From Gammaproteobacteria bacterium (GTDB lineage: Bacteria > Pseudomonadota > Gammaproteobacteria > Tethybacterales > Persebacteraceae), in contig OZ251571.1 of assembly GCA_965243565.1 (NCBI GenBank), positions 1,096,704 through 1,160,703 of the forward strand: a stretch of DNA of 64,000 bases. The letters run 5' to 3'. The position numbers and the translations under genes are program-made. Numbering within the stretch: the first letter of the stretch is position 1; each line of letters starts with the position of its first letter. The notes below the pieces were generated by a model, which was given only the letters and a program-made list of their open reading frames with translations, did not search any database and had not been told where the DNA came from. Below, piece after piece: positions 7,178 through 30,573 of the stretch.

Positions 7178-7193
7178 TAGAAGCGTTGTTTTT

Positions 7194-8993
7194 CTATACT
7201 TCGTATATTTTTGTATAACTCTCTGGGTCGGTCCATTTGCTATCGTCAAATGGACAAATTTCAAAAGTACCTTTTTCTATAAAACCGTTATCATTTAATA
7301 CCTTTTGTATATTTTCTCTATCATCAAAAAAGTATTCTTGTAATAAGGGCATGATTTTTTGTTGAAAAGTATTTTTTAAATCCTCCATACTGGCAATCCC
7401 CATAAAATAAGTATGTCCAATTTGGTGTTCACGGTCATAAAATTTAGTAATTTCTTTATTTATAGCCGTTAATAATTCTGGTAATGAAACTTCTTTGTAT
7501 TTTTCGTTCTCTAATTTTTTGGCATCAGGCATCATCTCAATAAAAGTAAAACGTCGGCGTAATGCAGTGTCCAGCAGAGCAATAGAGCGGTCGGCGGTGT
7601 TCATTGTGCCGATGATATAAAGATTATCGGGTATGCCAAAATCTTCGTCAGAATACGGTAATGTTAATCTTAGACTCTCTTCTTTCCCTAATCGTTTAGA
7701 TTCTTCAATGAGTGTAATTAATTCACCGAAAATTTTAGAAATATTACCCCGATTAATCTCGTCTATGATTAATACATAATTTTTATCTTTATTTTTACCT
7801 GCTTGAGTGGCAATTCTCTTAAATATACCATCTTTCATTTTATAAGAGATATTTTCATTATCTAAAACAGGCTTAATTCCTTCAATAAAATCTTCATAAG
7901 CATAATTTTGATGAAAAGTAATCATCTCAATTTGCCCTGCTTTTTTTAATTCGTTAAAACGCTGCCGTAATACAGAGCGTTCGCCATGATTTTTTTTGCC
8001 GTCAATAATATTTAGGGCTTCTTCAATAGTAATATAAGTTTTCCCTGTTCCGGGAGGACCGTAAAAAATTTGATTTAAAGGGATACTGCTAGACTTATTA
8101 TTATTGACTTGAGATGAATCGTTATTATCACTTTCTCTCACTTCATCGGCATTATTATCATGAGAGGGTTTTTTAGATGTATCCCATTCGCTTTTTCTCT
8201 CTCCGTATTGTTTTTTAAAAGTAAATCTTTCTATGCCTTTCTTTTCATCTTCGGTTTCTATTGCTTTACGAATAATGTGTATTTTTTCGTCTAATGTATC
8301 ATTTTCAGATATTGATTTTTTAATATATTCTTGTTTAGTGTAATGATCAACTATCTTTTGTTTATTTCTTTTACTTATTATTGGTTCATATTTATCAGGA
8401 TAAATATAATAGCGAATAGCAGAGGTTATTCCATATAAATGCTTTTTTTCTTCATTATCACTACAATACTTCTCTATAAACTCTTTTAGATTGCTTTTAT
8501 TAGTTTTATCAGAAAAATTTTCTTTTAGTAAGCATTCAAATAATCCTACAATAAAACATATACTGTGATACTTGCCTGCTCCTTTGTATCCTTGCCCTGC
8601 CATAGATACACCTATTAATGCTAAAAATGAATTAATTGGTCCAGTTTCTTCTTCCCATCTTTGTAGCTGTTCTGTTTTTTTCTCTACACCAACCCCACCC
8701 GGTGATATTATTAAAAGATGGATAAATTCAGCGTGGAGAAATAGTAATTTTTCATTAACTGTGGAATCATTAAATTGCCAAGATAATTTTTCTTCAAAAC
8801 TATAGCTACTATCTGTATTTGGCGCATCAATAAATCTTTTTTTTATGCCCTCTATGTTTTCATTCGTAAAAACATTATCGCTTTTAGCAGTTGTAACAAA
8901 ATTCTGTTTTCCTAATAGGAATGTATCTTCAAAATTATTCCAGCATTTAATAAGTGCGTCATGTCTTTCTTTTAATGGTGCAATTTTTTCCAT
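7194..8993 (-). CDS. mcrB: McrB-family AAA+ GTPase
   Basis: GPPGTGKT, IIDEINRGN and MNTADRS...LRRRF (NxxD) motifs; unrecognised ~270-aa N-terminal domain. Confidence 0.92.
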   Translation of the reverse strand: MEKIAPLKERHDALIKCWNNFEDTFLLGKQNFVTTAKSDNVFTNENIEGIKKRFIDAPNTDSSYSFEEKLSWQFNDSTVNEKLLFLHAEFIHLLIISPGGVGVEKKTEQLQRWEEETGPINSFLALIGVSMAGQGYKGAGKYHSICFIVGLFECLLKENFSDKTNKSNLKEFIEKYCSDNEEKKHLYGITSAIRYYIYPDKYEPIISKRNKQKIVDHYTKQEYIKKSISENDTLDEKIHIIRKAIETEDEKKGIERFTFKKQYGERKSEWDTSKKPSHDNNADEVRESDNNDSSQVNNNKSSSIPLNQIFYGPPGTGKTYITIEEALNIIDGKKNHGERSVLRQRFNELKKAGQIEMITFHQNYAYEDFIEGIKPVLDNENISYKMKDGIFKRIATQAGKNKDKNYVLIIDEINRGNISKIFGELITLIEESKRLGKEESLRLTLPYSDEDFGIPDNLYIIGTMNTADRSIALLDTALRRRFTFIEMMPDAKKLENEKYKEVSLPELLTAINKEITKFYDREHQIGHTYFMGIASMEDLKNTFQQKIMPLLQEYFFDDRENIQKVLNDNGFIEKGTFEICPFDDSKWTDPESYTKIYEV

Positions 8994-10482: not shown

Positions 10483-10524
10483 GACAATACTCCGTTATTT
10501 TTTATAAATTTTATTCTTGTATTA

Positions 10525-10736
10525 TATCAAAATATCTAAAAATTGCTTATCGTGTACAATAGACGATAGGATTAGTAGTTAAGCACGTCTGCGTAGTATG
10601 AAAGTATTTGTATTCATACAGGTTTCTGCAATTTTTATAAATTAATTATTCGCAGGTGCTAGATGTGCTAACTACTTGGAGTTCTTTTATTTCAAAAAAA
10701 TTGGATACTTACCATTACACAACTAAAGATTATTGT
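10525..10736. repeat. 212-bp diverged direct repeat, copy 1
   Basis: Aligns to 21002-21213 without indels, 25 mismatches by manual count (about 88% identity). Confidence 0.95.
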
Positions 10737-10882: not shown

Positions 10883-12439
10883 ATGACAAGTACCCAACAA
10901 CGCGCTGAACTACAACGCCAGATTTGGCAAATAGCGAATGAAGTTCGTGGCTCGGTCGATGGCTGGGATTTTAAGCAATATGTATTAGGCACATTGTTTT
11001 ATCGTTTTATCAGCGAAAACTTTGTCAGCTATATTGAAGGCGGCGATGAAAGCATCAACTATGCAAAGTTCCTCGATAAGAACATTACCGCCGACATCAA
11101 AGACGACGCCATTAAAACCAAGGGCTACTTTATTTACCCAAATCAATTGTTTGCAAACATTGCCGCAGACGCAAATGAAAATGGAAACCTAAACATTGAC
11201 TTAGCCTCGATATTTTCCGCCATCGAAAGCTCAGCCAATGACTACCCATCGGAAGATGATATTAAAGGTTTATTTGCCGACTTTGACACCACCAGTAACC
11301 GCTTAGGTAACACCGTTAAGGATAAAAATAGCCGCTTAGCTGCGGTAATAAAAGGTGTAGCGGGGCTAAAATTTGGTGAGTTTGACAGCAACCAAATTGA
11401 CCTGTTTGGCGATGCCTATGAGTTTTTAATTTCTAACTATGCCGCCAATGCCGGTAAATCGGGTGGCGAATTTTTTACCCCGCAACACGTCTCTAAGCTC
11501 ATTGCGCAACTTGCCATGCACGGGCAAACAAGCGTTAATAAAATTTATGACCCTGCCGCAGGCTCGGGCTCGTTATTATTACAAGCCAAAAAGCACTTTG
11601 ATGCCCACATTATTGAAGAGGGGTTTTTTGGTCAAGAGATTAACCACACCACCTATAATCTTGCCCGTATGAATATGTTTTTGCACAACATCAACTACGA
11701 CAAGTTTAATATGATGTTGGGTAACACACTTATAAATCCCCATTTTGGCGATGACAAACCCTTTGATGCGATTGTCTCAAACCCGCCTTATTCAGTGAAC
11801 TGGATTGGCAGTGATGACCCAACCTTAATTAACGATGACCGCTTTGCCCCTGCAGGTGTATTAGCCCCCAAATCCAAAGCCGATTTTGCTTTTGTGCTGC
11901 ATGCCTTAAGTTATTTATCCAGCAAAGGCAGAGCTGCAATTGTTTGCTTCCCCGGTATTTTTTACCGTGGTGGTGCCGAGCAGAAAATCCGCCAATACTT
12001 GGTGTATAACAACTATATCGAAACCGTTATTGCTTTAGCGCCTAATCTGTTTTTTGGCACCAGCATCGCCGTCAATATCTTGGTACTGTCCAAACACAAA
12101 ACCGACAGCACCACCCAGTTTATAAATGCGAGCGACTTATTTAAAAAAGCAACCAATAACAATGTGCTAACCGATGCCCACATCGAGCAGATTATGGACA
12201 TGTTCGATAGCAAAGACGATGTGGAGCATGTAGCGAAGTCGGTGAGTTTTGAGGCTATCGCCGCCAACGACTACAATCTATCGGTAAATTCTTATGTCGA
12301 AGCGAGAGACACCCGCGAAGTCGTTGATATTAAGAAGCTTAATGCCGAGCTAAAAACCACCGTCGCCAAAATTGACCAGCTTCGCACTGATATTGATGCC
12401 ATAGTTGCCGAAATTGAAGGGTCGGGGATTAAGGCATGA
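10883..12439 (+). CDS. hsdM: Type I R-M methyltransferase subunit
   Basis: [17 protein letters not shown] (SAM binding) and NPPY (m6A catalytic) motifs. Confidence 0.97.
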
Positions 12440-13605
12440 GCGATATGAGTTTTATGGAAAAGCTGCTTGAAGGTGTTGAGGTGGAGTGGAAGGCTTTGGG
12501 GGAGGCGACTGAAATCAAAACAGGTCAAGCAGTAAGTAAACAAGTGATTTTAGATAATTCTGGCGTGTATCCTGTAATTAACAGTGGCCGGGAACCACTT
12601 GGATTTATTGATGAGTGGAATACTGAAAATGACCCCATCGGTGTGACAACTCGTGGAGCGGGTGTTGGTTCTGTAACATGGCAAGAGGGAAAATATTTTC
12701 GTGGTAATTTAAATTACTCAGTGACCATAAAATTAAGTGCACAGGTTAATACTAGATATCTATATCATTTATTACTTGAAATGCACTCTGAGATCCAATC
12801 TATATCGAGCTTTTCAGGGATACCGGCTTTAAATGCTAGTGAGTTAAAAAAACTTCCAATCCCCGTCATACCCCTCGATATCCAAACAGAAATCGTCCGC
12901 ATTTTAGACGCATTCACCGAGCTTACCACCGAGCTTACCACCGAGCTTACCGCACGGAAAAAACAATACAACTACTATCGCGACCAGTTATTAAGCTTTG
13001 AAGAGGGGGAAGTGGAGTGGAAGACGTTGGGGGATGTGGCGGAGTATTCAAAAACAGGCATAAGCTTTGAAAAACTTGATAAAACAAATTATGTGGGGGT
13101 TAATAATCTCTTGCAAAATCGAGCAGGAAAAACAGAATCTAGTCATGTGCCAATCGAAGGTAATCTAACTGTATATTGTAGTAATGATATTTTAATCGGT
13201 AATATTCGTCCTTATTTAAAGAAGATATGGCACGCTGACCGTGTTGGTGGAACAAATGGCGATGTGCTGGTTGTTCATCAAATCGATGAGACAGTAAATC
13301 CACGATATTTATATCAGGTTTTGGCTGATGAAAAATTCTTTGATTACAATATGCAGCACGCCAAAGGCGCAAAAATGCCACGTGGCAATAAAGCTAAAAT
13401 AATGGAATATCGCTTTCCAGTCCCAAAGAATCTAACAGAACAAGCCCGAATAGTCGCCATCTTAGATAAATTCGACGCCTTAACCCACTCAATCAGCGAA
13501 GGTTTACCGCGTGAAATTGAGTTTCGCCAAAAGCAATATGAGCATTATCGTGATTTACTGTTGAGCTTTCCTAAAGTTGAGACCGAAGTAAAGGCAGAGG
13601 CATAG
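12436..13605 (+). CDS. hsdS: Type I (IC-like) specificity subunit
   Basis: [14 protein letters not shown] conserved regions, two TRDs and a central TELT repeat; ATGA overlap with hsdM. Confidence 0.95.
12916..12951 (+). repeat. 12-bp tandem repeat x3 in hsdS (TELT)3
   Basis: ACCGAGCTTACC repeated three times exactly. Confidence 0.95.
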
Positions 13606-13606
13606 C

Positions 13607-14761
13607 GTGAGTCAGTCTCTAACAGAAATAGCTCAGCAGTTAAAAGATGCTGATAAAAAAGTGCAATTAATTTATGCCTTTAATGGCACAGGTAAAACGC
13701 GCCTTTCGCGTGAATTTAAACAGCTAATTGCACCAAGGTTAGCAGGGCAACCAGAATCGTCGCATAAGAAAATCCTTTATTACAATGCGTTTACGGAAGA
13801 TTTGTTTTATTGGGATAATGATTTAGATAATGATGCGCAAAGAAAGTTAAAAATTCACCCTAACGCTTTCACTAAGTGGGTATTCGAAGACCAAGGGCAA
13901 GATCAAAATATCATTACTAATTTTCAACACTACACAAATGACAAATTAACACCTCATTTTAATGCAGAATACACAGTTAATGACAGAGATAATCATGAAA
14001 TTATAATAACAGCCTTTTCTGAAGTGACCTTTACTCATGAGCGCGGAGGCGATGAAATCTCAGAAGATATAAAAATATCTAAAGGTGAAGAAAGTAATTT
14101 TATTTGGAGCATTTTTTATACATTGCTTGAGCAAGTCATTAATATATTGAATGTTAGCGAAGAAAGTAATCGTGAAACGAATCAATTTGATCAGCTAGAG
14201 TATGTTTTTATTGATGACCCTGTGACCTCATTAGATGAAAATCATTTAATTGAGCTGGCAGTAAATTTAGCAAGTTTAATTGAATCTAGTTCTTCGGAAG
14301 TTAAATTCGTTATTACGACACATAACCCGCTTTTTTATAACGTACTATATAACGAGCTCGGAACAAAAACTTGTTATATGCTAGCTAAAAATGAAGATGG
14401 CACATTTGAGTTAAATGAGAAACAAGGCGATTCAAACAAGAGTTTTTCTTATCATCTGTTCTTAAAGCAGACCATTGAGCAGGCAATTAATAACAATAGT
14501 ATTCAAAAATATCACTTTACACTGCTACGTAATTTATATGAAAAAACAGCAAACTTTCTTGGCTATCCTAAATGGTCGGAATTGTTACCCGATGATAGAC
14601 AGGTTTACCTGAATAGGATTATTCAATTTACAAGCCATTCCACATTATCTAATGAAGCGGTTGCAGAGCCAACTGATGCAGAGAAGAAAACCGTTAAGTT
14701 ATTACTGGGTCATTTAGTTAAAAACTATGGTTTTTGCCAGCAAGGAGAACAAAATGATTAA
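13607..14761 (+). CDS. prrC: PrrC-like anticodon nuclease (ABC NTPase plus HEPN)
   Basis: [38 protein letters not shown] and FTSHS motifs recalled from E. coli PrrC; lies between hsdS and hsdR as in EcoprrI. Confidence 0.9.
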
Positions 14762-17700
14762 TTACACTAAAACCATTGCAGAATCGAATAACTTTATCGT
14801 ATTAGATAAATACACCAAGTCTTGGCAAGTCAATGAATCTTATCAAAGCGAATACGATTTAGAACGAGAGTTTATTACCGATTTGGAAAATCAGGGCTAT
14901 GAATATCTACCCGAGTTAAATACGCCTGTAAAAATGCTTGCCAATGTGCGGGTGCAATTGCAAACATTGAATAATATGCAGTTTTTAGATGCAGAGTGGT
15001 CGCGCTTTGTCGAGCAATATTTAGATAAGCCCAGCGATAACAGTACCGACAAAACCCGTAAAATCCACAATGACTATATTTATGATTTTGTTTTTAATGA
15101 TGGGCAGATAAAAAACATCTATCTGTTGGATAAAAAAAATACCATACGTAATAAAATGCAGGTGATTAAACAGTTTGAGCAGACTGGTACTCAAGCCAAC
15201 CGTTACGATGTAACGGTGTTAGTGAACGGTTTGCCCTTAGTACAAATAGAGTTAAAAAAACGCGGTGTCGCTATTCGCGAAGCCTTTAACCAAATACACC
15301 GCTACAGCAAAGAAAGTTTTAATACGGATAATTCACTGTTTAAGTATTTACAGATTTTCGTAATTTCTAACGGTACCGACAGCCGTTATTTTGCCAATAC
15401 CACCAAGCGCGACAAAAACAGCTTTGATTTCACTATGAACTGGGCAACGTCGGACAATAAGCTGATTAAAGATTTAAAAGATTTTACGGCGACGTTTTTT
15501 CAAAAAAACACCCTATTGAACGTGCTAATGCATTATTCGGTGTTCGATGTCAGCAACGCCTTGTTAGTGATGCGTCCCTACCAAATTGCCGCCACCGAGC
15601 GCATTTTATGGAAAATTAACAGTGCCTATCAAGCTAAAAATTGGAGCAAAACCGAAAGCGGTGGCTATATTTGGCATACCACTGGTTCAGGTAAAACCTT
15701 AACCAGCTTTAAGGCTGCGCGTTTGGCGACCGAGTTGAATTTTATTGATAAAGTGTTTTTTGTAGTTGACCGTAAAGACCTCGATTACCAAACCATGAAA
15801 GAGTATCAGCGTTTTTCGCCCGATAGCGTTAATGGCTCGGACAGTACTGCAGGGTTAAAACGTAATCTCGATAAAAAAGATAATAAAATTATTGTTACCA
15901 CCATTCAGAAGCTCAATAACTTAATAAAGAGTGAAGGCGACCTGTCTGTTTACACCAAGCAAGTGGTGTTTATTTTTGACGAGGCGCACCGAAGCCAATT
16001 TGGCGAAGCGCAAAAAAATCTTAAAAAGAAGTTTAAAAAATATTATCAATTTGGCTTTACCGGTACACCAATTTTTCCGCAAAACGCCTTGGGTGCAGAA
16101 ACTACAGCTAGCGTGTTTGGTCGTGAATTACATTCTTATGTGATTACCGATGCCATTCGCGATGAAAAGGTACTAAAGTTTAAAGTGGACTATAACGATG
16201 TACGCCCAAAATTTAGAAAGGCTGAAACTGAGCAAGATGAGAACAATCTCGCAGTAGCAGGAAGCAGACAGGCTTTATTGCACTCCGAACGTATTGGGGA
16301 AATTTCGCAGTACATCTTGAATAACTTCAGGCGCAAAACGCATCGCTCACATGTTGGCGCAAAAGGTTTTAATGCCATGTTTGCAGTGAGCAACGTGGAT
16401 GCCGCCAAGGCTTACTATGAGGCGTTTAAGAAATTGCAAAAGGATAAGGATAGCAATAAGCAACTTAATGTTGCTACCATATTCTCGTTTGCAGCCAATG
16501 AAGAGCAAGATGCCATCGGGGAAATTATTGATGAAAGTTTTGAACTCACTGCAATGGACAGCAGCGCCAAAGAGTTTTTAAGTGCGGCAATTGGTGATTA
16601 TAATGCTCAGTTTAAAACTAACTACGGTGTTGATAGTCATTCATTTCAAAACTATTACCGTGACCTTGCAAAACGAGTTAAAGACAAAGAAGTGGATTTG
16701 CTGATTGTTGTGGGTATGTTTTTAACCGGTTTTGATGCTCCAACTTTAAACACCTTGTTTGTCGATAAAAATCTGCGTTACCACGGCTTAATACAAGCCT
16801 TTTCACGTACCAACCGTATTTTTGGTACGCCCAAGACGTTTGGCAACATTGTTACTTTTCGCAATTTAGAACAAGCCACTATTGAAGCCATTACCTTGTT
16901 TGGTGATAATAACACCAAAAATGTGGTGTTAGAGAAAAGTTATAAAGAATACATGGAAGGCTTTACCGATATAGTAACAGGTAGGGCGCGACGTGGTTAT
17001 GTGGAAATAGTTGCGGAATTAAAAGACAATTTCCCCGACCCCGATAAGATAGTTAAAGAGCAAGATAAAAAGGATTTTGCTAAATTATTTGGTGAGTATT
17101 TGCGTGTCGAAAATGTGCTGCAAAACTACGATGAGTTTGCTGGGTTAAAAGCCCTGCAAAGTATAGATATAAACGACCCTACAGCCGTAGAGAAGTTTAA
17201 AGCTAAATATTATTTAAGCGATGAAGATTTCGCCGCTATGCAAGCGATAAATGTACCAACCGAGCGCACTATTCAAGATTATCGCTCAAGTTATAACGAT
17301 ATTCGTGATTGGCTTCGTCGTGAAAAATCTGGCAATGAACAAAATGAATCTAATATTGATTGGGATGATGTAGTTTTTGAAGTGGACTTGCTCAAATCAC
17401 AAGAGATTAATCTAGACTATATTCTGGAATTAATTTTTGAGAGTCATAAAAAGCATAAAAGTAAAGCAGAATTGATTGAAGAAGTACGCCGTTTAATTCG
17501 TGCAAGTCTTGGCAACCGTGCCAAAGAAAGTTTGATAGTCGATTTTATCAACCAAACTAACTTGGATGACATTCTCGATAAAACCAGCATTATTGCCGCT
17601 TTCTTTAGCTATGCTCAACAGCAGCAAGCGGATGAGGCAAAAGAGTTAATTCACTCGGAAAACTTAAATGAAGAAGCTGCTAAGCGTTATATCACGGCAT

Positions 17701-17861
17701 CTTTAAAGCGGGAATATGCTAGCGAAAATGGCACTGAGTTAAATGCCACACTGCCAAAAATGAGCCCATTGAATCCGCAATACAAAACTAAAAAACAGTG
17801 CGTCTTCCAAAAAATGGCTGATTTTGTTGAGAAATTTAAAGGCGTTGGTGGAGTGATTTAG
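14754..17861 (+). CDS. hsdR: Type I R-M restriction subunit
   Basis: [19 protein letters not shown] nuclease motif, HTTGSGKT and DEAH. ATG 14754 follows an AAGGAG RBS at 14742. Confidence 0.96.
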
Positions 17862-18094
17862 TCAAAGTGCTTCAAGAAAGTTCATGCATAAAAAGGGCTA
17901 CTGTTGGCCGGACATTCAACTTCGCTCCAAATTTACCGCAGAATGTGGCATTAGATTTCATTCTCAGCACCAATCAATTACCAGGACTATTTAACTTAGT
18001 CATACGATATAATTTTGAACGAGGGTCGTTTGACACCATCTTTTGTGTTCTGTAATTACGAATGAATAAGGCAAAGAGTATTTTTTATGGCGGA

Positions 18095-18160
18095 CTAGCT
18101 ATACCCCATTACCCGAATTCTATCGGGCACTTGTTCAAGTAGTTTTTTATCTTTCCTATC
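18095..18160 (-). pseudogene. intI: Integron integrase N-terminal remnant
   Basis: Reads DRKDKKLLEQVPDRIRVMGYS*, like the IntI N-terminal KLLDQVR.RIR..HYS. Divergent from and immediately upstream of the cassette array; the rest is not recoverable. Confidence 0.55.
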
Positions 18161-18212
18161 TGTATTATATTTCTATCAACACTATCTAATTTTTACTTAT
18201 CATATGCAATAA

Positions 18213-18463
18213 ATGACATACTTACAATTAGCTTATTTACATCTTGGAACAATTTTTCCTGCTTTTTTACCGCTATTGTCACTTTATTTATGCCAGCAAA
18301 AATTGGTTCAACCGTTTTAAATCATTTTGGCTTTATTCATCTGTTTAGTTTTTTGGTATTGTATAGTGTCCCTACAGCGTATCTGGCAGTAAAAAGGAAA
18401 GATATAAAGCGACATCGCTTGGCTATGATTGGAGTTTACTTTGGTGGAAGTCACTGCTGTTGA
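18213..18463 (+). pseudogene. DUF2306-like membrane protein, internally deleted and frameshifted
   Basis: MTYLQLAYLHLGTIFPAF jumps frame to FTAIVTLFMPAKIG...NHFGFIHLFS...RHRLAMIGVYFGG; the middle segment is missing. Confidence 0.6.
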
Positions 18464-18550
18464 TGGCTTAGAATTTAATTTAGGTGACAGTAAAAAATTC
18501 AAAAGTTACTTGAAATATTTTAATTATGTTTTAATTAGATAGGATAAATA

Positions 18551-19012
18551 ATGAGTAAACGTATAGTATTAATTTCTGGAATAATATTGTTGTTATTGTC
18601 TGCGATAGGAGTTGCAGGGATAGGAATGATGAAAGGAAAAGGCATGATGAATATGTCCATGGTTCGTCATCATTACGTTATGAAAAATGGGATCGGTTCT
18701 GAATATTTCTCAAAGGAGAATCCGCTTGTTCTTAATAAAGATAATCTTCAAGTAGGGAAAATTCTTTATGAAAAGAATTGCTTAAGTTGTCATGGGGCAT
18801 CAGGTTACGGTGATGGTAAAGCAGGGAAAAACTTGAATCCTCGTCCAGCAAACATTGCCAATTTTAGTAAAATGCCAATGGCAACAGATGGGTATTTGTT
18901 TTGGACAATCTCTGAAGGTGGCATTCCTATCCAGACGTCAATGCCGCCATTTAAGAGCTCTATAAAAGAAGAAGAAATATGGAAAATAATTATTTATCTG
19001 CGAGACATGTAA
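18551..19012 (+). CDS. Monoheme c-type cytochrome (cassette gene)
   Basis: N-terminal hydrophobic segment, CLSCHG heme motif, distal MPPF methionine; attC follows the stop. Confidence 0.85.
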   Translation: MSKRIVLISGIILLLLSAIGVAGIGMMKGKGMMNMSMVRHHYVMKNGIGSEYFSKENPLVLNKDNLQVGKILYEKNCLSCHGASGYGDGKAGKNLNPRPANIANFSKMPMATDGYLFWTISEGGIPIQTSMPPFKSSIKEEEIWKIIIYLRDM

Positions 19013-19013
19013 G

Positions 19014-19070
19014 ATCTAACAAAGCACTCCAGCGGACGCCTAACGCCGCCGCTGAATTTGGTCGTTATAC
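19014..19070 (+). other. attC site 1
   Basis: ATCTAAC...CAGCGG...CCGCTG...GTTATAC, 57 bp. Confidence 0.9.
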
Positions 19071-19073
19071 ATC

Positions 19074-19276
19074 ATGGGAGCATTGAGGTGTGTGCTGGCA
19101 ATATTCTATGCACTATTAATTGCATCAAATACGGGTAATGAAACGATCGGTTTTAGTCTTCTTATTTCATCAGGATTGTTTGCTGGTTGGGCTGTAATCG
19201 ACAAACGATGGGCGTTTTTACCCTTCAGTTTTTCTATGCTGCTTCTGCTATAATTGGCTTGGTTCGATGGGCATAG
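19074..19276 (+). pseudogene. Small membrane-protein cassette gene with probable frameshift
   Basis: 59-aa hydrophobic ORF (19074-19253); an alternative frame supplies LQFFYAASAIIGLVRWA* ending next to attC 2. Confidence 0.5.
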
Positions 19277-19287
19277 CTATGATAAGT

Positions 19288-19344
19288 GTATAACAAATCA
19301 TTCCTGCGGACGGCTACGCCGCTCACTGAATTCAAGCGTTATGC
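19288..19344 (+). other. attC site 2
   Basis: GTATAAC...GTTATGC, 57 bp, inner stem partly degenerate. Confidence 0.82.
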
Positions 19345-19357
19345 AAAAGGACCGTGA

Positions 19358-19747
19358 ATGAATTGCCCTAATTGTATTGAGAAATTAACCCCTACAGATG
19401 CAAGTGGCGTACAAACCTATACTTGTAAATCTTGTAATGGGATTTGGATTCCTGAACGTTCGTTGGCTACATTGCTTAAGATAGAAAAGATCGATTTGAC
19501 TATTCGTGACTTGGTATTAAAGGAGGATGGCACAGAAGAAAGCACACGTAATTGCGCTTCATGCAAAACTAAAAAGTTAAATTTAGTGGTGAGTCACGGA
19601 GTTAAGTTAGATGTTTGCGTCAAATGTTATGGGTTGTTCTTTGACCAAAATGAGATAAATAAGGTTTTGCCAAAAACCCATCAGCCCCAATCCAATGATG
19701 GTACTCTGGCACAGACAGCATTGTTTGCCTTATTATCACTATTATAG
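19358..19747 (+). CDS. Tandem zinc-ribbon (zf-TFIIB-like) protein (cassette gene)
   Basis: Four CxxC pairs: CPNC, CKSC.GIW, CASC and CVKC.GLFFD. Confidence 0.75.
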   Translation: MNCPNCIEKLTPTDASGVQTYTCKSCNGIWIPERSLATLLKIEKIDLTIRDLVLKEDGTEESTRNCASCKTKKLNLVVSHGVKLDVCVKCYGLFFDQNEINKVLPKTHQPQSNDGTLAQTALFALLSLL

Positions 19748-19762
19748 GTGGTGCAAGCCAAT

Positions 19763-19881
19763 GCATAACAAATTGCAGCAGCCTGAAAAACGGTACTACA
19801 CGATTTTTGTGTTACTGGCTACCGCTCAACAATAATACAAAAACCGCTCCGCACCGTTTTCATCTGTGCTTGGCGTTAGAT
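19763..19881 (+). other. attC site 3 (long, 119 bp)
   Basis: GCATAAC...TGAAAAACGGT/ACCGTTTTCA and TTTTGTGTTA/TAATACAAAA stems...GTTAGAT. Confidence 0.9.
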
Positions 19882-19897
19882 AAATTAGGAAAAAAAT

Positions 19898-20374
19898 ATG
19901 AGAACACTGATAATTACAATACTTCTGAGCATATCTGTACAAGCTCATTCAACATCTGTATTTCCAAAAGAGCTATATGAACTTGTTGCCTTATCTGACC
20001 ATATTCTCGCAGTTAAGATAGTCGACGTAACTATGATCAATGAAGAAGGTAAGCAACTAACAGACCCTAGTTCCAGAACAGGGCCAGGTACTTACAATAC
20101 AATTCGGCTTCATGCCAAAGTGCTTGATAATGGCATCATAAAAACCAGCTCAGCAAAACTACCTGAGACTATTATTATTCCTCTTTTTCAATTGTGGCAT
20201 TATTCTTTAGGGCAGGTACAAGGAGAAAAAGGCAATGAAATAATTGTGTTACTTAAGGGCAATAGCTACGAACCAGCGTATCCGGCTCTGTTCCGCCAGT
20301 CATTGCAATCAAGAGAAGAAATTATACAATTACTCAACAATCCATCTAACAAGTGCAAGCAACAGGACTGTTAA
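19898..20374 (+). CDS. Hypothetical secreted protein (cassette gene)
   Basis: Signal-peptide-like MRTLIITILLSISVQAHS, an AGGA RBS, and a reading frame that runs into the attC R'' box. Confidence 0.7.
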   Translation: MRTLIITILLSISVQAHSTSVFPKELYELVALSDHILAVKIVDVTMINEEGKQLTDPSSRTGPGTYNTIRLHAKVLDNGIIKTSSAKLPETIIIPLFQLWHYSLGQVQGEKGNEIIVLLKGNSYEPAYPALFRQSLQSREEIIQLLNNPSNKCKQQDC

Positions 20375-20400
20375 AATTTTAACGCATTTTAACGTTATTG
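20344..20400 (+). other. Truncated attC site 4
   Basis: ATCTAAC left arm (AAGTGCAAGCAACAGGACTG) present; no matching right arm. Confidence 0.6.
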
Positions 20401-20766
20401 AACGGAATTGAGAAAGTTGGATCTGCTCATGAAACTGTATTATTGTTTCCATTTTCGAGCATGGCAACACAACCAAATTGGACAGATATATGTCCAAATC
20501 TTGATGTTTCTTACTGCAAAGGCGTGGGGGAAAATGCTCATAATAATTCAACAAACTCACCGTTATTGCATGGTATCAAACTCGGTAAAATAATAGGGGT
20601 TACATGGAGGCCAAAAGGCTCATTAATTGGAGTTTCTGCAGCTATTCCAGCCGCAAACATACCCAAGAGTATTCGTAAATCTCCAAGAGATGCCTATTAC
20701 TATATTATCAATGATGCATCCAATAAACCTTTTGTCAGGCAGTGTCGAGAAATTGATGCAAAATAA
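20398..20766 (+). CDS. Hypothetical cassette gene, probably 5'-truncated
   Basis: 122-aa open frame ending just before an attC arm; TTG start only, no RBS. Confidence 0.45.
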   Translation: MNGIEKVGSAHETVLLFPFSSMATQPNWTDICPNLDVSYCKGVGENAHNNSTNSPLLHGIKLGKIIGVTWRPKGSLIGVSAAIPAANIPKSIRKSPRDAYYYIINDASNKPFVRQCREIDAK

Positions 20767-20769
20767 CAG

Positions 20770-20796
20770 CCCTAACAATTCATTCCAGCGTTATGT
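20770..20796 (+). other. Collapsed attC site 5
   Basis: CCCTAACAATTCATTCCAGC joined directly to GTTATGT; inner stem absent. Confidence 0.6.
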
Positions 20797-21001
20797 TTTA
20801 AAAGGAGTCAGTCGCAATGACGAAACATGAGTTAGGAAAAACACTCAATAAGATGTATTTCAATTCTGCAGATGAATAAGCCATTGTGATTCTCATTTAA
20901 CCATCTCTGGTTGACTATGGCGTGTTGCACTTATGATGTCAATTCAAGTCTTTATAAATCAAAATAATCAGATAGTATAAGATAATTAAAACTCATGTTT
21001 C

Positions 21002-21213
21002 TATCAAAATATCCAAAAAATGCTTATCATGTATAATAAATGATAGGATTAACAGTTAGACACGTCTACGTAGAATGAAAATATTTGTATTCATACAGGT
21101 TTTTGCAATTTTTATAAGCGAATCATTCGCAGATGATTGATGTGTTAACTACTTGGAGTTCTTTTATCTCAAAAAGATTGGACACTTACCATTACACAAC
21201 TAAAGATTATTGT
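21002..21213. repeat. 212-bp diverged direct repeat, copy 2
   Basis: Pairs with 10525-10736. Confidence 0.95.
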
Positions 21214-21265
21214 TCAAGAATACAACAACTGTGTAATGGATGAAATCTATCAAGACATACAAAAT

Positions 21266-21306
21266 TCCTAACAAAATGCTCCAGCGGACAATTCAAAGCG
21301 TTACTG
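21266..21306 (+). other. attC half-site 6
   Basis: TCCTAACAAAATGCTCCAGCGGACAATTCAAAGCG left arm only. Confidence 0.55.
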
Positions 21307-21330
21307 ATATTACTCGTAGGAATTTTAGTC

Positions 21331-21497
21331 ATGATACAAACACGACTTACAGAAAGTCTCAATTTAGATCATCCAATTATTCAAGCCCCGATGACATTTA
21401 CTGCCAGATGAGCTCTTGCCCCATCTGGCAGTAATTCTGGTGGACTGGATCTCATTGGCGGTGTTATGGCGACAAAAATTGGATTTTAGAGCAATTT
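21331..21497 (+). pseudogene. Nitronate monooxygenase family 5' fragment
   Basis: MIQTRLTESLNLDHPIIQAPM, then SNSGGLDLIGG and YGDKNWILEQF in shifted frames. Confidence 0.7.
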
Positions 21498-21563
21498 AGC
21501 CCCGCTATGTATGGGTCAGATGCAACCTAGTAATAAGACGTTATAACGCTTAGGATAAAGTAA

Positions 21564-22103
21564 GTGACTCCAAAAGTTCGCGTCTATTTGTCTATGCTCA
21601 TTTTTGCTGTAGTTGTAGCAGGAATATATGGAATGCTCCATGATCAGATTAGCTATACTTTTTCTAATGAATATTTCACTAAGTTTAAATTTAAACAATT
21701 CAAAATACCATGGGGATACGAAAGCCCTCGTTTAGGAGCGGCGTATGTCGGATTTTTAGCAACTTGGTGGATGGGAATATATGTTTATGCATTACTCGGG
21801 CTTTTTGGTTTTATGTTTAAAACACCAAAGTTAATGGCGATAAATCTTGCAAAGTCATTTCTCGTGGTGGTCAGCGTCGCATTAGTGACGGGTCTCGTAG
21901 GATTGTCCTATGGATATTTGCAAGTTACTGAAGCGACAATCTCGCAAAATATGCAATGGGTAAGACCTGGCGTTACTGATCCAGTCCAATTTGTACGAGT
22001 TGGCTATATGCACAATGCAAGCTACCTAGGCGGCTTGACAGGACTTATTGCGGGAATAGCATATCTCATTTTTAAAAAACTGCGTTATAATAAACAGATG
22101 TAG
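21564..22103 (+). CDS. Hypothetical multi-TM membrane protein (cassette gene)
   Basis: 179 aa with about 4 hydrophobic segments; begins after GTTATAA (21540) and reads into a degenerate attC. Confidence 0.75.
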   Translation: MTPKVRVYLSMLIFAVVVAGIYGMLHDQISYTFSNEYFTKFKFKQFKIPWGYESPRLGAAYVGFLATWWMGIYVYALLGLFGFMFKTPKLMAINLAKSFLVVVSVALVTGLVGLSYGYLQVTEATISQNMQWVRPGVTDPVQFVRVGYMHNASYLGGLTGLIAGIAYLIFKKLRYNKQM

Positions 22104-22131
22104 TCGGATGCGGCAGAGCATAGCGTTAACT
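22085..22131 (+). other. Degenerate attC site 7
   Basis: TTATAAT(C>T)AAACAGATGTAGTCGGATGCGGCAGAGC...GCGTTAACT, right stem shortened. Confidence 0.6.
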
Positions 22132-22163
22132 TCAATACTATTTTTAATAATGAGATATAAAAA

Positions 22164-22256
22164 ATGAATGTAAAAAATATTATCGGTATATTATGCCTAT
22201 TAAATTCGATTTCAATGTCTGCATATTCACAGTGCTACATAGCGTCAGATGGGTAG
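22164..22256 (+). pseudogene. Decayed secreted-protein cassette gene
   Basis: Signal-peptide-like MNVKNIIGILCLLNSISMSAYSQC ends in TAG after 30 codons, directly after attC 7. Confidence 0.35.
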
Positions 22257-22536
22257 TTCAGCTCTTCAAGGTTATGATTTTGACTTCGGTCGAAGGCGAG
22301 ATACTAACAACATGCTTTATTGGATTCCATTTACCCACACCAACATCTAGAATAGACCACATCCCGTGCAAGAGCATAAGGTGTGTCATAAATATGTTTG
22401 AATTGACTAATTTACGTATAAATTAGATGAGGTGGGTTGTTTTACTGGCATAATAACGGTCTTAAGTCTTTTACGCATTTATACGAGTGATTAACATTAC
22501 TAATACTCGATAAAGCCCGAAATAAACCATCCAATT

Positions 22537-24348
22537 ATGCTTGAAAAAATCCGAAATATAGCCATTATTGCTCACGTTGATCATGGTAAAACCACTCTCG
22601 TTGACAAACTCCTAAGACAGTCCGGCACCCTACAGCGTAAAGATGAAAACGCCGAACGCATCATGGATTCCAATGATCAAGAAAAAGAGCGTGGCATTAC
22701 TATTTTATCTAAAAATACTGCTATTACATGGAACGATTTTCATATTAATATTGTTGATACACCCGGACATGCCGATTTTGGCGGCGAAGTCGAACGTGTA
22801 TTGTCCATGGTGGATTCAGTGCTGTTATTGGTAGATGCAGTGGATGGACCAATGCCACAAACGCGCTTTGTAACTTCAAAAGCATTTGAACGAGGCTTAA
22901 AACCCATTGTCGTTATTAACAAAGTTGACCGCCCTAGTGCCCGCCCTGATTGGGTTATCAGCCAAGTGTTTGATTTATTCGACCATCTCGGTGCAACTGA
23001 TGAACAATTGGATTTTCCTATTATTTATACGTCGGCTATTCAGGGTATTTCTGGTTTGGATACCAATGACATGGCAAATGATTTAACGCCATTGTTTACA
23101 ATGATTACTGAAAAAGTGCCCGCACCTAATGTAGATATTTCTGCACCACTGCAAATGCAAATATCGGCTTTGGATTACAATAGTTATGTCGGCGTTATTG
23201 GTATTGGACGCATAAAGCGTGGTACCTTGCACGAAAACCAAAACGTGGTGGTTATTGATAAAGACAACAAACACCGCCGTGCAAAAATATCGCAAGTCAT
23301 GCAGCATCAAGGTTTAGAACGACTGCCAACACCAAAAGCCACTGCTGGTGAAATTGTTTGTATAACAGGGCTCAGTACACTGCATATTTCAGATACAGTG
23401 TGCCACCCCGATTATCCCGAAGCATTGCCGTTATTATCGGTAGATGAACCAACCGTTAGCATGACTTTTCAAGTTAACGATTCGCCGTTCGCTGGCTTGG
23501 ATGGCAAGTATATTACTTCTCGTAATATAAAAGAAAGACTCGAAAAAGAACTACTACATAATGTTGCATTGTACGTTGAAATGCTTGAAGGTGGCGATAA
23601 GTTTAAAGTGTCAGGACGGGGCGAATTGCATTTGTCAGTGCTGATAGAAAGCATGCGTCGCGAGGGGTACGAATTAGGTGTGTCTCGCCCCGAAGTCGTA
23701 TTAAAAACCATTAATGGTGAAGTACACGAGCCATTTGAGTCCGTTTTATTTGACCTAGAAGAAATTCATCAAGGTACAATAATGCAAGAAATTTCACAAC
23801 GACAAGGTGTTTTGAAAGACATGCAACCTGATAACAAGGGCCGCATAAAACTAGATTTTACGATACCTGCACGAGGACTTATTGGTTTTCGTAGTTTTTT
23901 TCTAACCTTAACCTCTGGCACCGGCATAATGACGAGTATATTCAGCCACTACGGTGCCATGAAAAAAACCACTGTCGCCAAACGCAAGAACGGCGTTTTG
24001 ATTTCCATGCTAAAAGGCAAGACAGCTGGTTATGCTTTGTTTAGCTTACAAAATCGAGGCAAACTATTTTTAGGACATGGTATTAATATTTACGAGGGGC
24101 AAGTTGTTGGGATACATTCCCGTGATAACGACTTAACTGTCAATCCAATAAAAGGCAAACAACTCACTAACTTTAGAGCGTCTGGGACCGATGAAGCACT
24201 CACATTGACCCCTCCTTTACACTATTCATTAGAGCAATCTCTTGCCTTTATCGAAGGTGATGAACTGGTCGAGGTAACCCCTAACCACATTCGCCTACGC
24301 AAGAAACTACTAACCGAAAACGACCGAAAACGCGGCAGAAACGCGTAG
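22537..24348 (+). CDS. typA: Translational GTPase TypA/BipA
   Basis: [22 protein letters not shown] and the C-terminal LVEVTP..IRLRK motif. Confidence 0.98.
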
Positions 24349-26064: not shown

Positions 26065-26343
26065 ATGCTAATTATCGACTGTCCTTGGTGCGGTACAAGA
26101 GAACAAACTGAATTTTCTTATCATGGCGAAGCCCATATTGTTCGCCCCAAAGATCCTGATGCACTATCGGATACCGAGTGGGCAGATTATTTGTTTTTTC
26201 GTAAAAACCCCAAAGGTGTTCACTTTGAAAGATGGATGCATGCATCGGGTTGTCGTCGCTTTTTTAACATGGCTAGGCATACTGTAACAGGACAAATTTA
26301 CGGTAGTTATAAATTTGGTAAGACAGCTCCTAAAACTTTATAA
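26065..26343 (+). CDS. soxD: Sarcosine oxidase family delta subunit (copy 1)
   Basis: CPWCG.R...EF and W.H..GC Zn motif; 92 aa. Confidence 0.95.
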   Translation: MLIIDCPWCGTREQTEFSYHGEAHIVRPKDPDALSDTEWADYLFFRKNPKGVHFERWMHASGCRRFFNMARHTVTGQIYGSYKFGKTAPKTL

Positions 26344-26344
26344 T

Positions 26345-29300
26345 ATGAATTATCGTTTGCCCACTGGTGGTTTAATAGACCGAGCAAAAACGCTATCTTT
26401 TACCTTTAACAAAGTAAAAATGCAAGGGTATGAGGGTGATACCATTGCTTCTGCTCTTTTAGCCAACGGTGTTACCATTGTTAATCGCAGTTTTAAATAC
26501 CACCGCCCACGTGGTATTTATTCGGCTGGTGTCGAAGAACCAAATGCTATTTTCACAATCGAAATGGACGGACAAATAACACCCAATGTCCGCGCGACCA
26601 TCACCGCTTTGGTGGATGGTATGGTTATTCGCTCACAAAGCGGCTTTCCATCGGTTGGTTTTGACATCGGCAGTGGCTTACTTTCTTTGTTTTCACGGTT
26701 AATGCCGCCCGGTTTTTATTATAAAACATTTATGTTTCCTAAAAACTTATGGATGTTTTATGAAAAATTCATACGCAAAGCAGCGTCATCGGCTCCTGTG
26801 CCGAGCAAAAGCGATACCCATCTTTACGATCATAGCCATGCCCATTGTGATGTGCTGATTGTAGGCAGTGGTCCTGCTGGTATTGCAGCCGCTCTGACCG
26901 TAGCCAAAAGTGGTTTGGACCTTATTTTGGCTGAAATGTCTCCCTATTTTGGTGGTGAATTACTCAATGCACCTGCTGACGATATTAATGACAAACCTGC
27001 TACGGTATGGTTGGCAGAATCGCTTGCTTATTTGCGCTCTTGCTCTAATGTACAAGTTTTACCTCACACAACAGTGCAAGGATATCACGATTACAATTAT
27101 CTCATTGCAGAACAAACTTTGCATTCGGTGGCAAAAAAAACCAGAACCCACTGCCAAAGTCGCTTGTGGAAAATTCGTGCGCAAAAAGTTATATTGGCAA
27201 CCGGTGCTATTGAAAGACCGATGGTTTTTGCCGGAAATGATACGCCTGGTGTTATGTCGGCTTCGGCAGTGCAAACTTATATTCACCGCTATGGCGTTGT
27301 TCCCGGTAGAAGCATCCTCTTTTTTACCAATAACGACAGTGCTTACCCTGTTGCTATCCAAGCACAAAAAGCGGGTGCCAATGTCGAAATTATTGATATT
27401 CGTAAAAATGAAAACGGCCATTGGCAAGTGCAAGCGGATAAAGAGAAAATTCAAATTCATAGCAGTGCAGCAATCGTTGGTTCAATGCTAAATAATGGCG
27501 ACATTATGTCGGTACATTTGGGTAAACTTAACGGCAATACGGCTACTCATTACTCCTCTCACGCTTATCACAAAATTGCGGTGGCAGGTGGTTGGACTCC
27601 CACCGTCCATTTATTCAGTCATTCTGGCGGAAAGTTAAAGTGGAATCAACGCCTTAATGCCTTTGTGCCTGATGTTTCTAACCCTCTAAACCCTTGTGTT
27701 ACCGCTGGTGCAATCAACGGATTTTTAGATTTGGCTAAATGTCTTGAAGACGGCACTGCTTCTGCCAATGCTGCCATTCAGTTTTGCAATGGCACTGTAC
27801 CTGAACCAACACCGATAAAGACAGCCGCTAGTAACATCGAACAAGAGGCTTTACACTTGCCTATTATCCCTTCAATACATCCATTGGGTCAGGGTGATGG
27901 CAAGCATTTTGTTGATTTTATGAATGACGTAACTGCCTTTGATATTGAACTCTCCGCTCAAGAAGGGTATCAATCTGTCGAGCACATGAAACGCTATACA
28001 GCAGCCGGTTTTGGCACCGATCAAGGAAAAACGGGCAATATTAATGCGCTTCGCATTTTGGCACAAGTATTAAACAAATCACCCAGCGAAGTCGGACACA
28101 CAACATATCGCCCTAATTACACTCCTGTTTCTTATGGTGTTATTACAGGGCATGACAAACTAAGGTTATTTGCCCAAAGCCGCACCACTGCCATCGACCA
28201 TTGGCACAAACGCCATAATGTCATCTATGAAGATGTTGGGGATTGGAAACGAGCGCGTTATTTTCCTGTTAATAACGAAACAATGGATGAATCAGTATGG
28301 CGTGAATGCAAAGCAGCGAGAAAATCTGTAGCAGCAATGGATGCCTCCACTCTTGGAAAAATTGATATTCAAGGACCAGACGCTGCTCAATTTCTTGACA
28401 TGATTTACACCAATATGTTCTCCAACCTCGCCGTTGGGCGTTGTCGATATGGCATGATGCTACGAGAAACTGGCATGATTTTTGATGATGGTGTAACAGC
28501 ACGTTTGGGCGAAAATCATTTTCATCTGACAACCTCTACTGGTCATGCCGCAGCAGTAATGACATGGCTTGAAGAATGGTTACAAACAGAATGGCCTGAT
28601 TTAAAAGTTTTTTGCACCAGTGTGACGGAACAGTGGTCAGTTATTGCCTTAGTAGGCCCCAAAGCAAGAGATTTATTAAACGAAATAACCGATATTGATT
28701 TGGACAATGAATCTTTTCCTTTTATGTCATTCAAAGAAGGCAAAGTATGCGGCAGTATTAATGCACGTATTTTCCGTATTAGCTTTTCAGGTGAGACTGC
28801 ATTTGAAATTAATGTACCTGCTTGTACTGGGCTAGCGGTCTGGGAATCGTTGTTTAAATTAGGGAAAAAATACAATATTACGCCTTATGGAACAGAGGCT
28901 ATGCACGTATTGCGTGCTGAAAAGGGTTATATCATCGTCGGACAAGATTCTGATGGGACAATGACACCGTTAGATTTGGGCTTGGATTGGATGCTATCCA
29001 AAAAGAAAAAAGATTACCTTGGCAGACGATCGCTCGCTCGTCCTGATATGTTACGCAAAGGACGGATGCAGTTTGTTGGCTTGTTGCCAGATGATCCAAA
29101 AGCGGTTATTACCGAAGGTTCACAAATTGTATCGAAAGAAAACGCTAAACCACCAACCACCACACAAGGTTTTGTTACCTCTAGTTACATGAGCCCTACT
29201 TTGGAGCGATCATTTGCATTGGCAATGATTGACGATGGGTTTAACCGTCATGGTGAAACCATTTATGCCGTAACGATGGACAATAAAACCATCGCTGCCC

Positions 29301-29353
29301 AAATTACTGGGACTGTCTTTTGGGACAAAGAAGGAATAGCATTGCGTGGATAA
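26345..29353 (+). CDS. soxA: Sarcosine oxidase family alpha subunit (copy 1)
   Basis: RSFKYHRPRG, GSGPAG, KRYT..GFGTDQGK and GcvT-fold C-terminus; ATG 26345 just after the soxD stop. Confidence 0.95.
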   Translation: MNYRLPTGGLIDRAKTLSFTFNKVKMQGYEGDTIASALLANGVTIVNRSFKYHRPRGIYSAGVEEPNAIFTIEMDGQITPNVRATITALVDGMVIRSQSGFPSVGFDIGSGLLSLFSRLMPPGFYYKTFMFPKNLWMFYEKFIRKAASSAPVPSKSDTHLYDHSHAHCDVLIVGSGPAGIAAALTVAKSGLDLILAEMSPYFGGELLNAPADDINDKPATVWLAESLAYLRSCSNVQVLPHTTVQGYHDYNYLIAEQTLHSVAKKTRTHCQSRLWKIRAQKVILATGAIERPMVFAGNDTPGVMSASAVQTYIHRYGVVPGRSILFFTNNDSAYPVAIQAQKAGANVEIIDIRKNENGHWQVQADKEKIQIHSSAAIVGSMLNNGDIMSVHLGKLNGNTATHYSSHAYHKIAVAGGWTPTVHLFSHSGGKLKWNQRLNAFVPDVSNPLNPCVTAGAINGFLDLAKCLEDGTASANAAIQFCNGTVPEPTPIKTAASNIEQEALHLPIIPSIHPLGQGDGKHFVDFMNDVTAFDIELSAQEGYQSVEHMKRYTAAGFGTDQGKTGNINALRILAQVLNKSPSEVGHTTYRPNYTPVSYGVITGHDKLRLFAQSRTTAIDHWHKRHNVIYEDVGDWKRARYFPVNNETMDESVWRECKAARKSVAAMDASTLGKIDIQGPDAAQFLDMIYTNMFSNLAVGRCRYGMMLRETGMIFDDGVTARLGENHFHLTTSTGHAAAVMTWLEEWLQTEWPDLKVFCTSVTEQWSVIALVGPKARDLLNEITDIDLDNESFPFMSFKEGKVCGSINARIFRISFSGETAFEINVPACTGLAVWESLFKLGKKYNITPYGTEAMHVLRAEKGYIIVGQDSDGTMTPLDLGLDWMLSKKKKDYLGRRSLARPDMLRKGRMQFVGLLPDDPKAVITEGSQIVSKENAKPPTTTQGFVTSSYMSPTLERSFALAMIDDGFNRHGETIYAVTMDNKTIAAQITGTVFWDKEGIALRG

Positions 29354-30003: not shown

Positions 30004-30573
30004 TTAATTATTTATCTCGTAACAAAATTGGTTTGCACTCATAATTAATAGTTCTGCCAATGATTTGGCAAAACCGCGCGGTAGCAAAATTGTAAAGCAC
30101 TGTTGCGAATTAATATCATCATTTCTAAATATAATAACGCGACTATGATGAAAAGCGGTTGAAGCCATTGCACCGACTTTAAAAGCGTTGTCTCGTAAAT
30201 CAATCGGTAAGTGTCTATTTAGCACGCCAGCGGCTTGTTTGCCAGATAACTTAATACCCACATGAGAAGCGGAAACATCTAAACAGTAAACGCCTTCTTG
30301 CTCTATGTTCATGGCTTGCTTATGGATAATCAATATTTTAAGTGGTTCGATACGCAACACATGATGATCATTTTTTTCGTCATAATACGTTGTTCGTGGT
30401 GGTGGCAGTGTAATATTTAACGGTGGTTTTTCATCAAATGCAACTTGTAAAATCGACAACGGCGTAAGTTCGGATAAAGTTAATTCCGACAAAAAACCAC
30501 TTTCAACTGTCAATTTGCCATTAAAATAAAGCCCTGTTTGCCAATTAATATATTTTTTTGTTGTATTATCCAC
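30004..30573 (-). CDS. soxG: Sarcosine oxidase family gamma subunit (copy 2)
   Basis: DVSASH...LSG...PIDLR..AF...A.T motif; overlaps the soxA2 stop. Confidence 0.85.
   Translation of the reverse strand: MDNTTKKYINWQTGLYFNGKLTVESGFLSELTLSELTPLSILQVAFDEKPPLNITLPPPRTTYYDEKNDHHVLRIEPLKILIIHKQAMNIEQEGVYCLDVSASHVGIKLSGKQAAGVLNRHLPIDLRDNAFKVGAMASTAFHHSRVIIFRNDDINSQQCFTILLPRGFAKSLAELLIMSANQFCYEINN

Follow-up and report, generated by a model that had tools for sequence, protein, structure and literature searches.

The window analyzed here, that is, the whole 64 kb stretch of contig OZ251571.1, holds an interval of 4.7 kb between the genes hsdR (14727-17861) and typA (22537-24348) that is occupied by short + strand open reading frames (ORFs) with short imperfect palindromes between them. 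Positions 18535-22131 of this interval very probably form a CALIN, a cluster of attC sites lacking an integron integrase as defined for IntegronFinder (Cury et al. 2016, PMC4889954; Neron et al. 2022, PMC9024848), here made up of about eight promoterless chromosomal gene cassettes on the + strand that are decaying with no integrase adjacent to them. The definition asks for at least two model-detected attC sites that share a strand and are separated by at most 4 kb, and these are found at 19014-19070 and 19288-19344; the assignment rests on home-built covariance models, not on IntegronFinder's own attC model. No intI was detected nearby, the best IntI1 match in the window by tblastn having an E-value of 0.78. 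Each attC match lies on the same strand as an ORF, just 3' of the end of that ORF or overlapping it, and six ORFs in the array are still open. The cassettes are the following:

18535-19064 (+), cassette 1: c-type cytochrome with signal peptide, ORF 18551-19012 (Pfam PF13442, PF00034); starts with TTAGAT after A
19065-19338 (+), cassette 2: hydrophobic ORF of 59 aa, 19074-19253
19339-19875 (+), cassette 3: double zinc-ribbon protein, ORF 19358-19747 (Pfam PF13453, E 3e-20)
19876-20394 (+), cassette 4: secreted protein of 158 aa, uncharacterized family, ORF 19898-20374; no Pfam match
20395-20790 (+), cassette 5: ORF of 101-122 aa (20398 or 20464 to 20766); no family match
20791-21300 (+), cassette 6: ORF stub of 20 codons, 20818-20880, and a copy of a 215-bp dispersed repeat, 20999-21213
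21301-21540 (+), cassette 7: N-terminal 46 residues of a nitronate monooxygenase (Pfam PF03060, E 5.5e-4, profile 2-46 of 331), in-frame stop, remainder deleted
21541-22125 (+), cassette 8: membrane protein of 169-179 aa, ORF 21564 or 21594 to 22103

The attC sites, lettered A to H, are the following:

19014-19070 (+), site A: canonical, 57 nt; R'' ATCTAAC, 5-nt spacer, L stem with both extrahelical positions, R' GTTATAC
19288-19344 (+), site B: 57 nt, family of A, weakened L stem
19763-19881 (+), site C: long type, 119 nt, long imperfect stem; probably intact
20344-20400 (+), site D: degenerate; R boxes kept, no L stem; fold z = -0.3
20770-20796 (+), site E: collapsed to R'', spacer and R'; core of ~33-38 nt missing
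21266-21306 (+), site F: left arm of the A/B family intact, center and right arm deleted; R' GTTACTG
21528-21546 (+), site G: collapsed to TAGTAAT, AAGAC and GTTATAA; read from the sequence, no model match
22085-22131 (+), site H: degenerate; R'' TTATAAT (AAC changed to AAT), stem lost, R' GTTAACT; no model match; fold z = 0.2

Detection of attC sites

An attC site consists of an R'' box (RYYYAAC) and an R' box (GTTRRRY), an L''/L' stem, an unpaired central spacer and two bases that are extrahelical on the bottom strand. Rfam contains no attC family, and its families gave no match in the window at gathering thresholds and only noise at E up to 1. A first covariance model was trained on 15 attC sites from four distinct class 1 arrays on plasmids, taken 3' of annotated cassette genes that include aadA1/2/6, cmlA1, aac(6')-Ib, oxa-1, dfrA14, qacG2, qnrVC1 and estX. 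An attC of aadA is present in 2515 plasmids. The training sites were cut to their first 30 and last 30 nt and aligned without gaps; a MAFFT alignment of the full-length sites was unusable owing to their variable centers. The structure given in textbooks, with an R box, a spacer and an L stem that bears two bulges, was 77.5% paired with covariation in the training sites, versus 25-50% with the partner columns slid. A strict motif rule, with perfect R''/R' complementarity within one site, overlooked most genuine class 1 attC sites, because the R' box of a site in an array belongs to the next cassette, and was dropped in favor of the covariance model.

The first model was run unfiltered on both strands of the window and matched 19014-19070 (+; 38.2 bits, E 4.9e-7), 19288-19344 (+; 30.7 bits, E 3.6e-5) and 20770-20796 (+; 18.8 bits, E 0.032), all other matches in the window having E > 1. 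A search with the pattern of site A yielded at least 120 metagenomic contigs. Eighty were kept, and the first model detected 177 attC sites on them, many per contig on one strand, which identifies the contigs as cassette arrays; some carry terminal IntI genes. A second model, trained on 150 of these metagenomic sites, gave the following scores, with E-values for the window and for the interval 17862-22536:

19014-19070, site A: 57.5 bits; window 5.9e-11, interval 4.3e-12
19288-19344, site B: 48.4 bits; window 7.5e-9, interval 5.5e-10
20770-20796, site E: 19.7 bits; window 0.034, interval 0.0025
19763-19881, site C: 14.8 bits, rank 4 in the window; window 0.46, interval 0.033
21266-21321, site F: 10.3 bits; window 4.9, interval 0.36
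20344-20400, site D: 8.1 bits; window above 10, interval 1.2

The second model gave zero matches at E up to 10 in 1.485 Mb of typA neighborhoods from 80 other gammaproteobacteria. The low score of the 119-nt site C is explained by a model that covers only the outer 30 + 30 nt of a site.

Structure of the attC sites

The alignment of site A to the class 1 consensus spans all 60 positions of the model, of which 16 and 23 are bulged; these are C and A on the top strand and correspond to extrahelical G and T on the bottom strand. Its bottom strand folds into R and L helices (z = -2.7), and it is 87-98% identical to attC sites of many metagenomic arrays. The full set of R boxes, L stem, spacer and extrahelical bases is present in A, is present with two mispairs in B, and is incomplete in D to H. 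In site B the L stem has, besides the two mispairs, a 1-nt insertion, and its fold is no better than those of shuffled sequences (z = -0.46). The bottom strand of site C folds at -19.2 kcal/mol (z = -2.3), and its position and boundary complementarity also fit an attC site. The inventory thus comprises one canonical site (19014), one stem-damaged site (19288), one long site that is probably intact (19763) and five collapsed or degenerate sites. A repeat search revealed a 22-nt motif, CTAACAAAGCACTCCAGCGGAC, in four copies at 19016, 19290, 20772 and 21268 (73-86% identity). It is the R''-spacer-L'' half of an attC site and is common to A, B, E and F, four sites out of eight. Sites C, D and H belong to attC types other than the A family.

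An earlier note on this DNA, made from the sequence alone, had placed attC sites at the positions that the two models matched. It had staked its reading on covariance-model support at 19014, 19288 and 19763, which is clear at the first two and marginal at the third (E 0.46 in the window, 0.033 in the interval). Its length range of 57 to 119 nt was confirmed. Its count of three intact and about four broken sites needs revision: five are broken (D to H), B is intact by sequence with a damaged stem, A is canonical and C probably intact. Its proposal that heterogeneous attC sites point to different donors applies to no more than a part of the array (C, D and H being of other types), since the 22-nt left arm places A, B, E and F in one family.

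Cassette boundaries

Every R' box was cut at G|TT and the hexamer at the start of each cassette was compared with the R'' box of the same cassette. Exact complementarity at all four variable positions is seen in the cassettes that begin at 18535, 19065, 19339, 19876 and 21541, the last of these with its own R'' changed from AAC to AAT; for the cassette at 21301 three of four positions match. This relation, previously noticed in four cassettes (one with a C>T change), is therefore exact in five of the eight, the C>T case at 21541 included. Over all cassettes 27 of 32 variable positions match, a result reached by no more than 2 of the 40320 ways to permute the R'' boxes (P ~5e-5). Within a single site, by contrast, R'' and R' as they stand in the array agree at just 1-3 of 4 positions. 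Complementarity between the start hexamer and the cassette's own R'' is the mark left by integrase-mediated insertion of circular cassettes.

Cassette contents

The protein of cassette 8 has homologues with 70-79% identity in Shewanella, Pseudoalteromonas, Planctomycetes and Chloroflexi. On a contig of Shewanella sp. M-Br the homologue lies between two attC matches (E 0.002 and 0.007); the Shewanella cassette begins with the same G|TTATAAC as cassette 8, and the whole cassettes share 65% DNA identity. The intact attC in Shewanella has the R'' box TTATAAC, which aligns with TTATAAT of site H and marks site H as a decayed copy of a genuine attC. Since kin of cassette 8 circulate in Shewanella integrons, relic arrays sample the same environmental cassette pool.

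The sole homologue found for the cassette 3 protein is in Gilvimarinus (57% identical), where no cassette array is obvious from gene content, that locus not having been scanned for attC. The cassette 4 protein has no close relative among 5.8 billion proteins and 197 distant relatives with identities of at most 49%. None of the cassette proteins matched a PADLOC defense family, and a search for their homologues found none, either at the 80 typA loci or in the 80 metagenomic arrays. At least three cassettes are gene fragments only. The copy of the 215-bp repeat in cassette 6 (20999-21213) is 88% identical to 10522-10736, upstream of hsdM, and a partial copy of ~60 bp lies at ~18160-18218. The repeat has no Rfam match; could it be a miniature inverted-repeat transposable element or the end of an insertion sequence? 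Two further features flank the cassettes:

18197-18463 (+): fragment of a DUF2306 gene without its N-terminus (Pfam PF10067, E 3.4e-7, profile 43-101 of 147)
22126-22536: array tail; carries a signal-peptide ORF that is truncated and, at 22313-22389 (-), a scrap of a multicopper oxidase gene for copper resistance

The DUF2306 fragment could be what remains of a first cassette that has decayed, or could belong to a former platform region. Its segment 18254-18408 has 74.5% DNA identity to a gene on a plasmid of Bernardetia (Bacteroidota), unusually high for such distant phyla, a likeness that would fit a horizontally moving cassette gene.

Integrase, attI and promoter

A tblastn search with IntI1 over the whole window gave nothing better than E 0.78, and Pfam scans of 40 window ORFs, a part of all ORFs in the window, detected no Phage_integrase domain and no recombinase; the earlier statement that the window has no intact integrase thus stands. 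A complete integron comprises intI, attI and the promoter Pc, and in the window no intI is present. To our knowledge, no general model of attI exists. Promoter-like sites are not enriched (21 versus 19.4 expected).

A possible vestige of the N-terminus of intI lies at 18092-18157 (-), which reads KLLEQVPDRIRVMGYS and then a stop and contains an IntI-like string of 16 aa. It resembles the conserved IntI N-terminus, e.g. RKLLDEVRDYMRLHHYS in a metagenomic contig (L128), and its position and strand are as expected of a divergent intI. The string was the top match over six frames of a small home-made hidden Markov model of the IntI N-terminus, at -1.3 bits (E 0.87). It reaches E 5 with IntI1 by tblastn and has no match in Pfam or NCBIfam, so that an origin from intI is possible on a weak, non-significant resemblance.

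Contig L128 is the closest integrase-bearing integron with the attC family of site A. Its IntI gene (3-635, -), broken by the contig end, is 35% identical to IntI1 (residues 5-213), and its attC sites at 2084-2141 and 2560-2619 (+) are 87% identical to site A. Among the 80 typA neighborhoods a single IntI was found, in a metagenome-assembled genome of an uncultured member of the Cellvibrionaceae; this gene (4501-5112, -) lies directly downstream of typA, is broken by the contig end and is 49.5% identical to IntI1 over residues 125-328. Its place beside typA may be a coincidence or a hint of integrons near typA in this group.

Variation between samples

An exact look-up of typA gave no match, and a genome scan with typA found none above ~74% identity among the species representatives listed. 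Strains were therefore compared through the contigs of three public runs from one study (X1, X2 and X3) and a separate 10-kb metagenomic contig (L207), so that presence and variation of the array are described for few samples, three of them from one study. The locus is present in all three runs and in L207, and the array is 99.5-99.7% identical among them. Variants include a deletion of 18027-18750; a deletion of 20355-20476 in L207 and X2, which takes most of site D; a 2-bp deletion at 19138 in X3, which frameshifts the ORF of cassette 2; and a 15-bp in-frame insertion in cassette 3. At 22289-22345 a contig with 376 nt in place of 55 nt is found in all three runs, and L207 is as the window. 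The depth of the 376-nt variant is 2.8 of ~30 in X1, 15.3 of ~105 in X2 and 29.8 of 29.8 in X3. The assembly graphs of the public runs fork at 18165-18185 and 20992-21023, near copies of the 215-bp repeat.

None of the variants in the three runs and L207 falls at a G|TT crossover, and no precise loss, gain or reordering of cassettes was seen. Contigs drop rare variants, so low-level excision could persist. The comparison of cassette content across strains that had been proposed in the earlier note was made on these contigs, and showed deletions off the attC sites and no precise change of a whole cassette.

Origin and decay of the array

The sequence evidence supports an array of cassettes that were inserted by an integrase and are now eroding with no integrase nearby. 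Insertion is indicated by significant attC matches with an independent model, by the circular-permutation signature at the boundaries, by one ORF per cassette on the attC strand and by the cassette, boundary included, that is shared with Shewanella. Erosion is indicated by the pseudogenized cassettes and by variant deletions away from attC sites. Each cassette would once have been placed here by an integron integrase that recombined it into the G|TT of an attC or attI site. The array, now decaying through ordinary mutation and deletion, would descend from a complete integron whose integrase has since been lost, possibly in place just left of 18535. Decay is seen in the nitronate monooxygenase, DUF2306 and copper-oxidase fragments, in the collapsed attC sites, and in variant deletions and a 2-bp frameshift that lie off the crossover points. 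With no platform promoter, the remaining ORFs would be expressed, if at all, by read-through or from chance promoters. The evidence favors a relic that is no longer being reshuffled.

Several points weigh against this reading. The 119-nt site at 19763-19881 reaches only E 0.46 window-wide, and the IntI-like string at 18092-18157 is statistically non-significant. The six open ORFs mean that some cassettes may be under selection and not simply decaying. Finally, intI was sought only over flanks of 18.5 kb (left) and 42 kb (right), and the genome may still encode it. The CALINs described so far may arise through loss of intI, through rearrangement away from intI or through insertion at a secondary site (PMC4889954); from the 64 kb, intI may have been lost in place or may survive elsewhere in the genome. 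Of the earlier description as a "frozen, eroding chromosomal integron", erosion without a nearby integrase is upheld, whereas 64 kb are too little to prove "frozen", given that one or two sites look functional and might still be used by an integrase encoded in another part of the genome.

It is conceivable, as a tentative suggestion, that the array is the fossil of an integron loss in a lineage undergoing gene decay, the host being apparently an uncultured gammaproteobacterium, found only in the three runs and L207. If so, the string at 18092-18157 would be the last trace of the integrase and the polymorphic deletions would be erosion in progress; an incoming integron could still take up the cassette of the single canonical attC (19014).

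An unlikely alternative is that the array was split off from an active integron, with an intact intI and attI elsewhere in the genome acting through 19014 and perhaps 19763. About half of all CALINs occur in replicons that encode IntI (PMC4889954), and the structurally canonical attC at 19014 and the six ORFs that remain open are in keeping with continued activity. However, the majority of the attC sites are broken, the variants in the three runs and the one contig are deletions unrelated to attC, with no precise excision or reshuffling, and no intI is found in the flanks searched.

More improbable still is that an integron was never resident here and that an integrase acting in trans, supplied for instance by a transient mobile integron, added the cassettes in succession at a secondary site of the genome. 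Insertion by integrase outside att sites is documented (PMC4889954). The left boundary A|TTAGAT in place of G|TT and the lack of a recognizable attI would agree with such a site. Insertion outside att sites is reportedly also described in a 2022 bioRxiv preprint (10.1101/2022.09.11.507474). Yet eight or nine cassettes in one orientation, four of them with a common attC family, have the look of a resident platform, and a weak IntI-like string lies at exactly the expected place and strand.

A chance likeness to attC in AT-rich intergenic DNA, with no integron cassettes at all, agrees with the individual non-significance of five of the eight proposed sites and is nevertheless practically untenable, having been refuted by E-values of 5e-7 and 4e-5 at two sites with a model from unrelated plasmid attC sites, zero matches in 1.5 Mb of controls, boundary complementarity at P ~5e-5 and the homology of one cassette to a Shewanella array cassette.

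Under the preferred reading of an eroding, integrase-inserted array, the locus offers one well-resolved example of the death of an integron array, with intermediate states visible as variants between samples. The order of decay would be loss of the integrase, followed by collapse of attC sites through internal deletion, truncation of cassette genes and invasion by a small repeat.

Genomic neighborhood

To the left of the array lies a type I restriction-modification operon (10883-17861) with the classical order hsdM-hsdS-prrC-hsdR, in which a gene for a PrrC-type anticodon nuclease (13607-14761; PADLOC PrrC, E 1.7e-150) stands between hsdS and hsdR. A McrBC pair of low GC content is found at 5912-8993. 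With the PrrC-bearing operon and the McrBC pair nearby, the cassette array adjoins a defense island. Two full-length paralogues of the sarcosine oxidase alpha subunit are encoded in opposite orientation at 26315-29353 (+) and 30566-33598 (-), with further genes at 34545-36461. Delta and beta-like sarcosine oxidase subunits, a BCCT transporter (189-1991) and a homocysteine S-methyltransferase make this a neighborhood of betaine and sarcosine catabolism.

Comparison with known integron systems

The array shares the attC architecture of mobile class 1 arrays on plasmids, and the model built from class 1 sites only finds A and B at 38 and 31 bits. Unlike those arrays it lacks intI1, both conserved segments (5' and 3'), a transposon or plasmid setting and any resistance cassette, and among 72,556 plasmids its DNA found matches to short gene scraps only. 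It falls outside mobile integron classes 1-5, having no IntI and chromosomal hsdR/typA flanks.

The chromosomal location, the housekeeping-gene flanks, the ORFan-rich cassettes and an attC family common to part of the array are as in the sedentary chromosomal integrons of Gammaproteobacteria (Vibrio, Shewanella, Xanthomonas and Pseudomonas), including lineages with inactivated intI, and one cassette is held in common with a Shewanella array. Unlike them, the array lacks an integrase and a recognizable attI or Pc, its cassettes number only about eight, and its attC sites are of mixed types (57 and 119 nt). Sedentary chromosomal integrons are defined by presence in all genomes of a species or by more than 19 attC sites (Cury et al. 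2016, PMC4889954); here there are about eight sites, and the locus is recorded from three runs and one contig, that is, from few samples.

The closest likeness is to CALINs, which the array resembles in having at least two attC sites that share a strand and lie less than 4 kb from each other, in the absence of a nearby intI, in cassettes mostly of unknown function and in the absence of resistance genes. Fewer than six model-detected attC sites are found in 83% of CALINs (PMC4889954), and the array, with two to four detected by model, is as small as most. A recognizable intI pseudogene was nearby in only 15 of 279 CALINs in the 2016 survey (PMC4889954); here the only trace of intI is N-terminal and non-significant. 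For a CALIN the array is unusually far decayed, its broken sites outnumber the intact ones, and its decay is polymorphic between samples. CALINs were reported as common already in 2016 (PMC4889954), and the array is an ordinary example of this well-described type, leaving the knowledge of integrons as it was.

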